From IMG/VR virus record IMGVR_UViG_3300025653_000045, positions 1-56,031 of that record: 56,031 nucleotides of DNA; one strand, 5' to 3'. The translations under genes and the position numbers were made by a program. This stretch comes from a virus (taxonomy: Duplodnaviria > Caudoviricetes). This document shows, piece after piece, positions 21,336 to 24,667 of this stretch. The notes under the pieces were generated by a model that saw nothing but the letters and a program-made list of their open reading frames with translations, was not told where the DNA came from and searched no databases. Within the stretch, counting starts at the first letter, position 1; every line of letters starts with the position of its first letter.

Positions 21336-21397
21336 GAGTGGGGGAGTATATACACCTTCTGAAGTTTACGAAGAAGGTGATATACGACCCCTCTCTC
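21336..21397 (+). repeat. Structured hairpin repeat, copy 1
   Basis: GAGTATATACACCTTCTGAAGTTTACGAAGAAGGTGATATACGA core. Confidence 0.9.
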
Positions 21398-21431
21398 TAA
21401 CTCGAAATTCAAACTTCAAAATTCAACCATC

Positions 21432-21587
21432 ATGTCAAACGTTTCAGACATCATCGATTGCGTCATCGCTTCAGGTTACATGACAAGTGTAGACGTCTAC
21501 AGGGCGTTAGGTGACGACGAGGACGCAAGGAAGTACATCCTCAAGCACCACCTCGACGAAGAACTCGAAGCCCACTTGGGTATGTGA
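21432..21587 (+). CDS. Small acidic early protein
   Basis: Manual 51 aa ORF MSNVSDIIDCV..., with TTCAAA-rich leader. Confidence 0.65.
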   Translation: MSNVSDIIDCVIASGYMTSVDVYRALGDDEDARKYILKHHLDEELEAHLGM

Positions 21588-21594
21588 TGCCACA

Positions 21595-21646
21595 GGTACA
21601 CTGATGAGTCCTCAATGGACGAAACACCCTTCGGGGTGTCTGTATC
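21595..21646 (+). ncRNA. Hammerhead ribozyme 1 (type I)
   Basis: Stem I GGTACA/TGTATC, CTGATGA, stem II GTCC-tcaat-GGAC, GAAA, stem III CACCC-ttcg-GGGTG, GTC cleavage triplet ending 21640. Confidence 0.93.
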
Positions 21647-21647
21647 A

Positions 21648-21795
21648 GACATACTGATGAGCGCTGAATGCGCGAAACACCTTCGGTGAAATCGAGGATA
21701 GCTACCTCGACGTAACCAACGCTCCATCCCGTATCACGTGTAAGCCACGGGTCACTGCTGGGTCGCTGACGCAGGGGGCAGAGGGTGTCTATGTC
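21648..21795 (+). ncRNA. Hammerhead ribozyme 2 (type I) with large insert in stem III
   Basis: Stem I GACATA/TATGTC, CTGATGA, stem II GCGC-tgaat-GCGC, GAAA, stem III ACACCTTC/GAGGGTGT, GTC ending 21789. Confidence 0.87.
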
Positions 21796-21815
21796 AAACT
21801 TCAAATTCATTTCCA

Positions 21816-21977
21816 ATGAAAAATTCAAATGTTGAGGCGAGAATCGCCAAGTTGCAAGCCATGGTGGACATGTACCAAGTGTTCGGGGCTGACGCCTACT
21901 TCAACTCCGAGGAGTTCACAAGCTTGTCATGTGATGAGCAGATGATGGTCGAACAAGAAATCGCCGACTTGTCATGA
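21816..21977 (+). CDS. Small acidic early protein
   Basis: Manual 53 aa ORF MKNSNVEARIAK..., ATGA overlap with next gene. Confidence 0.65.
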   Translation: MKNSNVEARIAKLQAMVDMYQVFGADAYFNSEEFTSLSCDEQMMVEQEIADLS

Positions 21978-22198
21978 ATGTGTGGGAACGCTACCCCAAG
22001 TTTGGCACTTCAATGAGCGATTGGATGCCAAAGTCCTGCCCTTCAACGGAGTTCAGGATGATTTACTATCGTGGCCGTGACCGCGACGACTGGGATGACA
22101 TGACGTTCAAGGCGTGGTCGCTCGACCATGCCAAGCAACGGGCACTCGACCTTGTGCCCGACGGATGGACAATCAAGTCCGTCAAGCAGGTACTCTGA
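21974..22198 (+). CDS. Hypothetical early protein
   Basis: 74 aa; stop codon lies in the core of hammerhead 3. Confidence 0.7.
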   Translation: MNVWERYPKFGTSMSDWMPKSCPSTEFRMIYYRGRDRDDWDDMTFKAWSLDHAKQRALDLVPDGWTIKSVKQVL

Positions 22199-22237
22199 TG
22201 AGGGTTTAATACCCGAAACACCTTTGGTGTCAGTATC
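22189..22237 (+). ncRNA. Hammerhead ribozyme 3 (type I)
   Basis: Stem I GGTACT/AGTATC, CTGATGA, stem II GGGT-ttaat-ACCC, GAAA, stem III CACC-ttt-GGTG, GTC ending 22231. Confidence 0.92.
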
Positions 22238-22260
22238 AATTTTTCAAACTTCAATTTACT

Positions 22261-22404
22261 ATGAACGAGTTCATTGTAACCTACGCAGCCCCTTTCCTGA
22301 TGTACGCTCAAATGTCACTGGCGTGGGGCATCATCCTGACTGGCATCGGTCAGTTCATCTCTTACTTGTTGGACGTGGCGGAAGCCAAAATGGAAGCACG
22401 ATGA
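22261..22404 (+). CDS. Small membrane protein
   Basis: Manual 47 aa hydrophobic ORF MNEFIVTYAAPF... Confidence 0.6.
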   Translation: MNEFIVTYAAPFLMYAQMSLAWGIILTGIGQFISYLLDVAEAKMEAR

Positions 22405-22571
22405 AAGACAACCCATTCCGTGGCATGAGCCACAAGGAACTCGTGATGTCATACCTCATCTTCTCCGCGATGGAGGACATAGAAGCTGTGCACATGGTGT
22501 CAGATGCGTTTGACGCTGACGTGTACATCGACCTTCGAGAGTTCGGCATCTCGACAACGGACTTCCAATAA
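22401..22571 (+). CDS. Hypothetical early protein
   Basis: Start moved to ATG 22401 (ATGA overlap). Confidence 0.6.
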   Translation: MKDNPFRGMSHKELVMSYLIFSAMEDIEAVHMVSDAFDADVYIDLREFGISTTDFQ

Positions 22572-22629
22572 GAGAGGTGAGTATATATACCTTCTGAGTT
22601 TACGAAGAAGGTGATATACGACCCCTCTC
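22572..22629 (+). repeat. Structured hairpin repeat, copy 2
   Basis: GAGTATATATACCTTCTGAGTTTACGAAGAAGGTGATATACGA core. Confidence 0.9.
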
Positions 22630-22666
22630 AAACTTCAAACTTTTCAAACTTCAAATCTCCAATATC

Positions 22667-22912
22667 ATGGACAACTTCTTTGGACAACCTGTGGGGCGTG
22701 CAGTGCTCTACCTCAACGACTTCCACTTCGGCAAGAACCTCGCCGTGCTCAACCGAGCCGCACGACTCGTGCCAAATGACGTCAAGGGCTTTGCCTCCCT
22801 CCTGTCAAACGTGGTCAACCCAAACCCTGACCAAGTTCAAGACATCGTGAACTTGCTCGACGACTACGCAAACGACGCTGTTGACGGACGACTCAAAACC
22901 CCAAAGCAATGA
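22667..22912 (+). CDS. Hypothetical early protein
   Basis: 81 aa, TTCAAA-repeat leader. Confidence 0.7.
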   Translation: MDNFFGQPVGRAVLYLNDFHFGKNLAVLNRAARLVPNDVKGFASLLSNVVNPNPDQVQDIVNLLDDYANDAVDGRLKTPKQ

Positions 22913-23127
22913 CAATTACAGCATTCACAGACCTCGACATCATTGTCGAAATCAGCAACTGCTTCAACCACAAGCACACCACGTCAGACAGCGCATACAA
23001 GCTGTTGGACAAGTACCTACGTCACGAGTGTGGCTTGACCATGGACGAAGTGGATGACGTCATCGACCGCATGGAAGAGTTGATGGCAGAGCACATCATT
23101 GAAATCATCGAATCCAAAGAACAATGA
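22909..23127 (+). CDS. Hypothetical early protein
   Basis: 72 aa, ATGA overlaps. Confidence 0.7.
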   Translation: MTITAFTDLDIIVEISNCFNHKHTTSDSAYKLLDKYLRHECGLTMDEVDDVIDRMEELMAEHIIEIIESKEQ

Positions 23128-23430
23128 AAGAATTTATGAACATCATGGGGGACTACCTCGCACGTCAGGAAGATGACCCCAACTTTGACCCTCGAACTGA
23201 AATCTATGACCTGTACGCCGACTTGGTAGCCCTTTACCTTTCGTTTGCTGCTGCGTCAATCGCATCACGAATCCAAAACCAATGACACATAGAATAATCA
23301 GCACAAGCAACCAATCCCTTGCGGAGTATAGCACTTGGTACATCGGCACGAAGAAGCAGTGCGAGAAGATGCTCGGACAAATCAGGCGATGGGCTAACAA
23401 GACATCAGACGAATTTCAAATCATCGAAGC

Positions 23431-23622
23431 ATGACACAAGAACAATGCGAATCAGCAGTCAAAGTACTGCAAGACAGAGGTTTTGATGCCTCCCATGTGC
23501 AGGGTGCGCCTGACGACCACGGCGTGTGGTTGGACAGCGTGTGGAACTCTGACCTTCAGGAGGCCTTCAGCTTCCGAATCCACGACGAAGAAATCGAATA
23601 CCTACAAACCTTAACTACATGA
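23431..23622 (+). CDS. Hypothetical early protein
   Basis: 63 aa, acidic. Confidence 0.65.
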   Translation: MTQEQCESAVKVLQDRGFDASHVQGAPDDHGVWLDSVWNSDLQEAFSFRIHDEEIEYLQTLTT

Positions 23623-23801
23623 CACAACACGATAAGTGCCACAAGTGTGGCGGCGAGGGAATCTTCCTCGGCTCACAAGAAACAGGTTACTCCGCAGGAG
23701 GTTGGGTGCAACAATGCCACGACTTCGAATGTGAGGACTGCCAAGCAACATGGGATGTAACCATGGAAATCACACCAACAAGACGAGACAACCATGACTA
23801 A
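23619..23801 (+). CDS. Zinc-ribbon protein
   Basis: CHKC and CEDC motifs. Confidence 0.65.
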   Translation: MTQHDKCHKCGGEGIFLGSQETGYSAGGWVQQCHDFECEDCQATWDVTMEITPTRRDNHD

Positions 23802-24243
23802 GGTAATTATAGACAAGCCAAGCGGCTCCTATTGGGATAACGAAGGCAAGTACCAAGCGCAGTACAACAAGGCATGGAAACAGCTTATCCCTGCGTCAGG
23901 TGAGGCAAAGGACGGACTCCCCGAAGCCCTCCGTGCCATCTCTCGCATCGGCTACGACTACTACAACAACGGGTTCTGCAACCTGTGGAGGTCAAGCGAG
24001 GCGTATGACAGCGACGGGTGCTACTACGATGAGTACGAGATGGACTCGTACTACGAAGAGTTGGTGGACTACCTACGCTACGAAATCCCACGAGACCTGC
24101 ACAAGCAACTCGAAGAGTTCCTGTTGGATGCTCAAGGGTACGGGAGTTGGAGCGATAGTGCGGACATCATTGACCGCATCATTGACTACATCATGGAAGG
24201 CATCATCAAGGATGGCCTTCTCGAAGAGGAATTGGTTAATTGA
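23794..24243 (+). CDS. Acidic hypothetical protein
   Basis: 149 aa; YWDNEGKYQ, LIPASG and YDYYNNG motifs. Confidence 0.75.
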   Translation: MTKVIIDKPSGSYWDNEGKYQAQYNKAWKQLIPASGEAKDGLPEALRAISRIGYDYYNNGFCNLWRSSEAYDSDGCYYDEYEMDSYYEELVDYLRYEIPRDLHKQLEEFLLDAQGYGSWSDSADIIDRIIDYIMEGIIKDGLLEEELVN

Positions 24244-24296
24244 AGTTTGACCACGAGGGGTTGGCGTGAAACGTCATGCCTCCCCTCACCTCAATC

Positions 24297-24360
24297 AAGG
24301 GAGCGCAGTCGGTGCGTACATCTACGGATGGCAGTTGTGTTCGAATCCCAACCTCCCTTC
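24297..24360 (+). ncRNA. Miniature tRNA-like RNA without anticodon
   Basis: AAGGGAG/CTCCCTT closing stem, CGCA-gtcgg-TGCG arm, CATC-tacg-GATG arm, T arm with TTCGAAT loop. Confidence 0.65.
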
Positions 24361-24468
24361 ATTACCCCTTGACGCTAGAAAACGACATTACCTTGTCAGG
24401 TGTGGTGGGGCATTCAGCCATAGAAATGTGGTCAAATCGGTTGCGTCAAGAAGGGGGGTGTGTGTAAT
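24361..24468 (+). ncRNA. Candidate multibranch structured RNA
   Basis: CTTGACGC/GCGTCAAG and flanking CCCC/GGGG, ATTAC/GTAAT pairing enclose inner hairpins. Confidence 0.45.
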
Positions 24469-24521
24469 CCATGACCGATATGATTGCCAATGACTGACGG
24501 CTCGGAAAGACGAGCATATAT

Positions 24522-24607
24522 AGGCAGAGAATCCCGATGGTCGGGCGGCGTTTTCCACTCATCGCGTCGTTAGTGATTTCCCCGAGGTTCGAATCCTCCT
24601 CTGCCTA
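24522..24607 (+). ncRNA. tRNA-like RNA with 8/4 acceptor branch and no canonical anticodon loop
   Basis: AGGCAGAG/CTCTGCCT + A, CCCGA-tgg-TCGGG arm, CGGCG/CGTCG arm with 14-nt loop, GAGG-TTCGAAT-CCTC. Confidence 0.65.
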
Positions 24608-24612
24608 CTTAT

Positions 24613-24667
24613 GTGTGAGTGTATATACACCTTCTGAGTTTACGAAGAAGGTGATATACACGAACAC
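24613..24667 (+). repeat. Structured hairpin repeat, copy 3
   Basis: GAGTGTATATACACCTTCTGAGTTTACGAAGAAGGTGATATACACGA core. Confidence 0.9.

Follow-up and report, generated by a model that had tools for sequence, protein, structure and literature searches.

The DNA analysed here (the window), which is the entire viral record IMGVR_UViG_3300025653_000045 with its 56,031 nucleotides (nt) and an estimated completeness of 92%, carries three hairpins of one kind between the small genes of its early region, and this element is real, conserved and uncatalogued. A hairpin between cistrons of a phage early operon is familiar, whereas the invariant GA-flanked tip of this one, which recurs across phages, cellular ribosomal operons and phage origins, is not. 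We see about an even chance that the hairpins are RNA punctuation of the early message, i.e. sites cut by an RNase III-type enzyme and/or hairpins that protect transcript ends. We tentatively read them as RNA and not as single-stranded DNA because of their slot between genes, where ribozyme-like and tRNA-like elements can replace them, the single promoter of the region and the copies in cellular ribosomal operons.

Three hairpins and their relatives

The three copies are listed with the minimum free energy (MFE) and z-score of their folds and with their scores in two covariance models, R1, of the window-type element, and R2, built on 43 hairpins with a second type of tip, mostly from other phages.

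21336-21395, + strand: hairpin copy 1; MFE -33.0 kcal/mol, z -5.96; R1 78.1 bits; R2 19.6 bits, E 5e-4
22571-22629, + strand: hairpin copy 2; MFE -26.1 kcal/mol, z -6.00; R1 73.9 bits; R2 17.5 bits
24611-24669, + strand: hairpin copy 3; MFE -28.2 kcal/mol, z -6.39; R1 83.5 bits; R2 19.8 bits

All three are 59-60 nt long with 23-27 base pairs, and they lie at the sites and on the strand where a sequence-only reading of the window had placed three dispersed hairpins. Their 18-letter core, ACGAAGAAGGTGATATAC, has exactly three matches in the 56,031 bases, a number reached in none of 100 shuffles, and the hairpin pattern occurs over the entire record in three forward copies and no reverse one. Every copy folds into the single rod drawn in that reading, namely an outer stem, a 2x2 GA/GA loop, 6-8 pairs, a bulged A in the 5' arm, 8 pairs, a second GA/GA, one closing pair and a UUUA loop, with z about -6 and no equally good fold among 200 shuffles for any copy. 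The GA/GA loops, which the folding program leaves open, may be closed by sheared pairs. The antisense strand folds somewhat worse (z -4.2 to -5.2 vs about -6) and scores lower with both models, at 30-38 bits vs 74-84 for R1 and 12.9-15.1 vs 17.5-19.8 for R2.

The outer stems differ between copies and nevertheless pair, as had been claimed. That of copy 1 is GGGG/CCCC, extendable to GAG.GGGG/CCCC.CTC, and encloses a GA/GA loop, GUAUAU/AUAUAC, the bulged A, CACCUUCU/AGAAGGUG, GA/GA and G-UUUA-C, the tip being lengthened by one A; copy 2 has GAGAGG/CCUCUC and, at a position that is C-G in copy 1 and U-A in relatives, a U.G pair; copy 3 has GUGU/ACAC and the additional GU/AC pairs already pointed out in the sequence-only reading. 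Their positions, too, were described correctly, after a stop codon or RNA element and before a leader and an ATG: copy 1 begins 5 nt past the stop codon TAA at 21328-30, copy 2 begins 0 nt past the TAA at 22569-71 and copy 3 begins 6 nt past a tRNA-like element, and 3' of the copies stand 7-nt tandem repeats (21405-26, 22628-55 and 24666-87) and then the ATGs at 21432, 22667 and 24694.

That structure rather than only sequence is conserved is borne out by the relatives. A pattern scan of viral contigs matched 47 loci, of which 15 carry the hairpin, in 25 copies, and 32 are unrelated; L131 came from a looser scan. Among these relatives the core hardly varies, and compensatory paired changes occur in every helix. 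One pair of the 8-pair stem is C-G, U.G or U-A; in L010 the AU stem GUAUAU/AUAUAC becomes GUAUAC/GUAUAC (U-A to C-G); the loop-closing pair changes from G-C to A-U in L029, L048 and L131; and L131 also has an A-U to U-A change. Outer stems differ freely throughout the relatives with pairing kept, and the same hairpin is followed by different genes.

The covariance-model check proposed at the outset found the element in the closest relatives only: R1 gave hits in two of 59 terminase-related loci, and none in the other 57, whose terminases are ~80% identical, many of these loci stopping short of the early region. In six loci of distant relatives that were scanned by folding, the early regions differ from that of the window. 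R1 also gave weaker hits in the same slots of close relatives, and these carry the second tip type, consisting of CU-GA, two pairs (A-U and C-G), a GNA triloop and GA-AG. A hybrid in L197 joins a lower stem of the window type to this second tip, and in a variant at L033:4594 both GA loops are replaced by ordinary pairing. No described Rfam family matches. At the gathering cut-off, Rfam 15 reports a single tRNA in the entire window and no family for the hairpins; at E<=10 only chance-level microRNA models appear, over hairpin 1 (18.8 bits, E 5-8); and in 20 other loci, at gathering or E<=1, nothing was reported over the related hairpins. A literature search found no description of this hairpin or its tip.

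One candidate early promoter and exchangeable elements between genes

The phage's terminase is closest (39-48% identity) to those of podophages of Flavobacterium, Cellulophaga and Maribacter, and DNA near-identical to the window is present in 22 freshwater metagenome runs from 12 studies; the source is an uncultured freshwater phage whose host is likely a member of the Bacteroidota. A blastn search with 20.5-25.5 kb found no related cultured phage. The early block has one candidate for a host-type promoter:

20684-20715, + strand: candidate Bacteroidota sigma-A promoter (TTTG, 21 nt, TACCTTTG)

The predicted transcription start lies near 20720, 47 nt 5' of the first early ATG (20767). This site is the only one in the early block in a + strand scan for TAnnTTTG, the next being at 28311, and a sigma-70 scan found fewer sites than chance (3 vs 6.5 in shuffles). 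No TAnnTTTG stands near the hairpins, and promoter scans found no promoter 3' of them. With a single host-type promoter, the ~25 small early genes look like one transcription unit, as far as sequence can tell. Genes of this presumed unit overlap as ATGA, or else the gap between them ends in AAACTTCAA, 4-14 nt 5' of the ATG. There are nine exact copies of AAACTTCAA on the + strand between 20745 and 25994, all within G-free 7-nt repeats, including copies directly 3' of stop codons with no hairpin (24962, 25986). This leader probably stands in for a ribosome-binding site, and to our knowledge Bacteroidota do not use Shine-Dalgarno pairing. Between stop codon and leader, a gap of the early unit contains one of three things, a hairpin, a hammerhead-like motif or a tRNA-like element:

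21405-21431, + strand: G-free leader after hairpin 1, about three 7-nt repeats including AAACTTCAA, ending at ATG 21432
22628-22666, + strand: G-free 7-nt-repeat leader, beginning at the foot of hairpin 2 and ending at ATG 22667
24666-24693, + strand: G-free 7-nt-repeat leader after hairpin 3, ending at ATG 24694
21595-21646, + strand: hammerhead-like motif 1, stem I open, GUC at 21638-40; Rfam 20.6-24.4 bits, below cut-offs, core by direct reading
21633-21683, + strand: hammerhead-like motif 2, type III topology, stem III open; RF00008 (Hammerhead_3) 32.8 bits vs cut-off 48.5, E 4e-5 on 711 bases
22189-22237, + strand: hammerhead-like motif 3, GUC at 22229-31, followed by a leader and ATG 22261; motif scan and direct reading
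24297-24359, + strand: tRNA-like element 1, 7-pair acceptor-like stem and GTTCGAATCC T-loop; direct reading
24523-24605, + strand: tRNA-like element 2, directly 5' of hairpin 3; tRNA-Sec model 21.8 bits, below cut-off 47

The hammerhead-like motifs, of the form CUGAUGAG...CGAAAC with all hammerhead core letters, were found three times where 0.01 were expected, each between a stop codon and a leader. Motifs 1 and 2 overlap and have the GUC at 21638-40 in common; the core of motif 3, which Rfam did not report at E<=1, overlaps the stop codon of the upstream gene. ARAGORN called neither tRNA-like element. The occupant of the slot changes at one orthologous junction, 5' of gene 21816: hammerhead-like motifs stand there in the window, a single one in L010, and the copy-1 hairpin takes their place in L033. 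We also observed in L010 (7640-7540, - strand) a tRNA-like element, again missed as a tRNA, whose T-loop is GTTCGAATCC and whose stem is acceptor-like; it lies directly 3' of a hammerhead-like cut site, and a hairpin loop in it, GAACGUA, resembles the second tip type. In the window itself, ~110 unassigned nt past the second hammerhead-like motif and before the next leader (21684-21790, + strand) may also be structured.

How such gaps might work can be outlined as follows. Host RNA polymerase would start at the 20684-20715 promoter and transcribe the ~25 small genes. Gene pairs that are translationally uncoupled would be separated by a structured element, either a hammerhead-like ribozyme, a tRNA-like element or a hairpin, and by the G-free 7-nt-repeat leader, which would serve as the ribosome landing site. 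At a hairpin, the 23-27-pair rod with its small loops would be cut by an RNase III-type, double-strand-specific nuclease, and/or it would persist as a stable terminal structure that shields single-gene mRNAs from exonucleases, with the GA-flanked tip recognised by a putative, widely conserved cell factor. In phage T7, whose early genes are transcribed by the host RNA polymerase, look-alike irregular two-turn hairpins between the cistrons are RNase III processing signals. The window hairpins resemble these in being several similar, irregular hairpins of about two helical turns with internal loops, placed between cistrons of what is probably one transcript, just after a stop codon and before a ribosome site. 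Unlike the T7 signals, here taken from their textbook description, they are known from sequence alone, their invariant GA-flanked tip recurs far beyond this phage group, and the likely host is a bacterium of the Bacteroidota that does without Shine-Dalgarno pairing. Clustered hammerheads of phages and prophages have been read as cutters of long transcripts into gene-sized mRNAs (Perreault et al. 2011, PMC3088659), and they occupy the same slot with the same presumed task; in the window, hammerhead-like motifs share the operon with the hairpin and swap with it at one junction. The difference is that the hairpin has no ribozyme core, so it would need a protein nuclease or may only protect ends. 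If the hairpins are indeed cutting or protecting sites, one early transcript would be split by three interchangeable kinds of punctuation, a ribozyme, a tRNA-like element and a hairpin read by a protein, and this phage group would offer a compact natural system for mRNA processing in Bacteroidota.

Since the hairpin fills the slot of a hammerhead-like motif, has conserved non-Watson-Crick loops and belongs to no Rfam family, one may also consider a self-cleaving ribozyme of a new kind that replaces the hammerhead. To this we give hardly any credence: apart from two 2x2 loops the element is an unbranched rod that has nothing to form a pseudoknot with, the L033:4594 relative has no GA loops at all, and the tip also occurs antisense in coding DNA. 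Two further candidates were rejected. The purine arm (AGAAGGUGAU) as a sequestered Shine-Dalgarno sequence, or the pyrimidine arm as a mimic of the 16S tail, was dropped because no suitably spaced start codon follows and Shine-Dalgarno pairing is not used by the likely host; a triplex with the downstream pyrimidine tract is ruled out by strand orientation.

Stable hairpins directly after stop codons and at cassette borders might also be factor-independent terminators or attenuators that lower read-through between cassettes. This is how the PeSL stem-loops of T4-type phages act (Arbiol et al. 2010, PMC2839356), and the likeness extends to small repeated stem-loop cassettes between small non-essential early genes, at joints of gene gain and loss. 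Gene cassettes of the window phage are indeed shuffled at hairpins, leaders, hammerhead-like and tRNA-like elements. DNA variants in run X1 lack 24672-24962, which joins leader to leader with loss of gene 24694-24960, or lack 21647-22580, which joins a hammerhead end to hairpin 2; in others gene 25999-26784 is joined to the first tRNA-like element (26777 to 24295), or 21682-21783 is replaced by 8 letters. PeSL cassettes differ in joining a strong host-type promoter to the stem-loop, whereas the window hairpin has no accompanying promoter and is partnered by a translation leader. Nor does it have the U tract that follows the G+C-rich hairpin of an intrinsic terminator: the absence of this tract, already noted in the sequence-only reading, holds for all three copies, whose 3' tails are CUCUC.., AAACUU.. 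and UUCAAC.., and the eight terminator-like sites that a scan reported in the window include none of the three. With no promoter 3' of the hairpins, termination at copy 1 would silence ~24 downstream genes, and the hammerhead-like motifs further downstream imply read-through. We regard termination as very unlikely.

The sequence-only reading had offered a processing site, an antitermination signal or a hairpin promoter as possible functions, the last by comparison with the promoters of the N4 virion RNA polymerase. The processing site fits the context best, given one promoter, slots equivalent to those of hammerhead-like and tRNA-like elements, and the tip in cellular ribosomal spacers (see below). 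The N4 comparison does not survive, and a promoter for an RNA polymerase carried in the virion now seems close to untenable. It had in its favour that N4 has three hairpin copies in its early region, as the window does, that relatives carry a GNA-type triloop closed by C-G, and that the window encodes a 3041-residue protein of virion type. In the N4 genome, the perfect triloop hairpins 5' of gp1 and gp2, which we take to be the published promoters, have 5-7 pairs around a 3-nt loop, with TTC or TCC on the coding strand and the purine-rich GNA on the template strand; those of the window close a 4-nt loop with 23-27 pairs, and GA or GNA stands on the coding strand, i.e. the polarity is reversed. 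A host-type promoter already precedes the operon, and what follows a hairpin in L010 is not a gene but a hammerhead-like motif and a tRNA-like element. No polymerase was detected either: sequence-level searches with the 3041-residue open reading frame (ORF; 37732-46857, - strand) gave no likeness to an RNA polymerase in PHROGs, Pfam, PDB sequences (none below E 0.5) or phage records (no N4-like hit), and matched a Phage_L5_gp82 domain (residues 1936-2055), phrog_586 and a minor-capsid-like stretch (799-939).

The tip in other phages and in bacteria

When the 15 fixed letters of the second tip were scanned, at least 118 loci matched. Among the matches listed, 58 of 141 extend by at least four further pairs, where ~2% would be expected, and the stems of these hairpins are unrelated in sequence. 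The R2 model, built on such hairpins, places the three hairpins first to third among its hits in the window, all of them + strand hits of 19.8, 19.6 and 17.5 bits (E 5e-4 to 3e-3), with nothing else below E 0.6 except their own reverse strands, which indicates that the window hairpins belong to this wider family and differ in their cap. Among the matches listed, 50 distinct hairpins with at least four further pairs were sorted by context, and 16 of them, belonging to other phage lineages, stand 15-60 nt 5' of an ATG in the same orientation. One of these lineages has a G-free repeat leader of another kind 3' of the hairpin, and in L177 and L183 the 3' arm of the hairpin contains a Shine-Dalgarno sequence.

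A 20-letter version of the tip, scanned in one genome per prokaryote species, was found at 38 places (~1 expected) in hosts of at least six phyla. Several of the 14 places that are not antisense within an ORF are cellular and co-oriented with neighbouring genes. By Pfam, the tip hairpin lies between rpsL and rpsG in L253 and L249 and 5' of rpsQ in L264; by Rfam, it lies 63 nt past the 3' end of the 23S rRNA and 5' of a tRNA in L291; and further copies, identified by reading only, stand 5' of rpsQ again, 5' of dnaK and between ssb and rpsR. The ribosomal-spacer copies are in Lachnospiraceae genomes. Spacers of rRNA and ribosomal-protein operons are classic RNase III territory. Hairpins with unrelated stems are capped by the same 15-21 letters in phages of many hosts, in ribosomal operons of Lachnospiraceae, in an rRNA spacer and in phage initiator genes, and Rfam has no family for this tip. 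A high-copy REP-like element was considered and rejected, there being 1-2 tip copies per Lachnospiraceae genome. In L253, L249, L290, L292 and L294, all Lachnospiraceae, the tip hairpins lie within a larger repeated intergenic element, GAACACUUAGCGAG...CGAACUUAGUGUGAAAG..., that is present in the rpsL-rpsG, rpmC-rpsQ, ssb-rpsR and dnaK-upstream spacers and for which Rfam has no family.

An invariant tip on variable stems is also what one would expect of an RNA operator, i.e. of a site where a protein bound to the GA-flanked tip controls translation or makes the polymerase resistant to termination, in the manner of nut or put sites, without cleavage. The tip has the form stem-GA-short cap-GA-stem, with a D-box-like CUGA facing GUGAAGA, which we take to be K-loop-like; K-turns and K-loops combine tandem sheared G.A pairs with a 3-nt bulge or closing loop and are bound by L7Ae-type proteins. 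This form is present by sequence, and the basal GA/GA has no 3-nt bulge. The first copy stands just past the operon's first gene, and long untranslated stretches, 24244-24693 among them, would be open to Rho-dependent polarity. Against this, Pfam reported no RNA-binding or nuclease domain in the 12 early proteins scanned, and a phage-specific protein is itself improbable for a tip found in hosts of at least six phyla; L033:4594 has full pairing in place of the GA loops, and we noticed no linear boxA-like partner motif. Such an operator, including the antitermination signal of the sequence-only reading, is therefore rather improbable in our judgement.

Evidence against RNA punctuation comes, among other things, from the remaining contexts of the tip. 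Among the matches listed, 27 of the 50 sorted hairpins lie antisense within ORFs of 250-450 residues, as do 24 of the 38 places in prokaryote genomes. These antisense hairpins lie in one frame (14 of 14), giving the peptide SSLRS[ED]. Five of ten such ORFs have a Phage_rep_org_N, Lin1244_N or DUF1376 domain by Pfam and the other five gave no hit, so that the ORFs appear, from the N-terminal domains of half of those tested, to be of the replisome-organiser type. Iteron-like repeats stand beside the hairpin, in L159 as 6.5 copies of 11 bp at a distance of 42 nt and in L194 as 3.8 copies of 6 nt. No role as sense RNA explains this commonest context of the tip, antisense in initiator genes by iterons. 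GNA triloops closed by C-G, and tandem GA, are classic stabilisers of DNA hairpins, and the stems are almost purely Watson-Crick: G.U accounts for 4 of 578 pairs in the 25 family hairpins and for 1 of 172 in the four tip-proximal pairs of the 43 hairpins (pairs that were chosen by a filter), and isolated mismatches show no wobble bias (three G.T vs seven A.C). An RNA helix accounts for this near-absence of G.U no better than a DNA palindrome does, and perhaps less well. Punctuation by cutting is also weakened by L010, where 6 nt separate one hairpin from a hammerhead-like motif 3' of it, a pair that would be redundant if both only cut, by the hammerhead-like motifs of the window, none of which reaches the gathering score (at best 32.8 vs 48.5 bits), and by the absence of mapped RNA ends: the RNA run X23 (5% of sampled words) yielded two 151-nt pieces within gene 20767-21330 and covers no hairpin, and is hence uninformative on RNA ends.

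In several of the replisome-organiser genes (L136, L144, L164, L194, L188 and others) a second G+C-rich hairpin is found on the same strand, usually 5' of the tip hairpin; GCGC-GAA-GCGC is a frequent form of it, and the one in L188 repeats the tip itself, flanked by C-G.

The hairpins could accordingly be DNA structures, extruded or formed on a single-stranded + strand, that serve replication (priming, helicase loading or as part of an origin) or cassette recombination. Short tandem repeats lie 3' of every window hairpin too, hairpins and leaders stand at the ends of cassettes gained and lost among relatives, and a local minimum of cumulative GC skew near 22-24 kb is compatible with an origin, if weakly, since the skew is weak here and tracks gene direction. 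The likeness is to lambda-type origins located in the initiator gene. In contrast to these, the window hairpins are intergenic, co-oriented with genes and three per genome, placed exactly in stop-to-leader slots and in the early operon only; their polarity relative to the downstream gene is fixed in every intergenic case seen; the repeats of the window have a non-helical 7-nt period and also precede ATGs that have no hairpin; and the spacers of rRNA and ribosomal-protein operons that contain the cellular copies are no sensible place for an origin. We consider a DNA role unlikely on balance, and to be taken seriously.

The RNA and DNA contexts might have one cause. Tentatively, and with more doubt than conviction, we suggest that the tip, with its pyrimidine arm, CU-GA, short cap, GA-AG and purine arm, is an undescribed, near-universal module read by one conserved cell factor, a module that bacteria would use in rRNA and ribosomal-protein spacers and that phages of many phyla would have borrowed twice, as punctuation of early messages and, on the opposite strand, beside the iterons of lambda-type origins. 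If true, the shared reader of the tip, be it a nuclease, a chaperone or a replication protein, would represent a new general module of nucleic-acid recognition.

Other features of the window

Sequencing-run contigs of this DNA end at the hairpins; as the three copies have more than 30 identical letters in common, these breaks are an effect of assembly, not biology.

Outside the early block, seven late genes on the - strand have TATATTTGnnnn(n)ATG, with a TATATTTG box 4-5 nt 5' of the ATG:

55480, 49394, 20009, 19752, 13053, 10143 and 2843, - strand: TATATTTG boxes 5' of the ATGs of late genes

This box is the -7 box of Bacteroidota sigma-A. As a Flavobacterium transcriptome study places the -7 box at -12 to -5 (PMC9723704), the late mRNAs would start at or beside the start codon, i.e. 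they would be leaderless. The non-coding stretch 5' of the early promoter (20300-20640, + strand) looks conserved, and a similar string, CCCGAAACGCAT...CCCCGTGGGT, is present in the distant relative L062.

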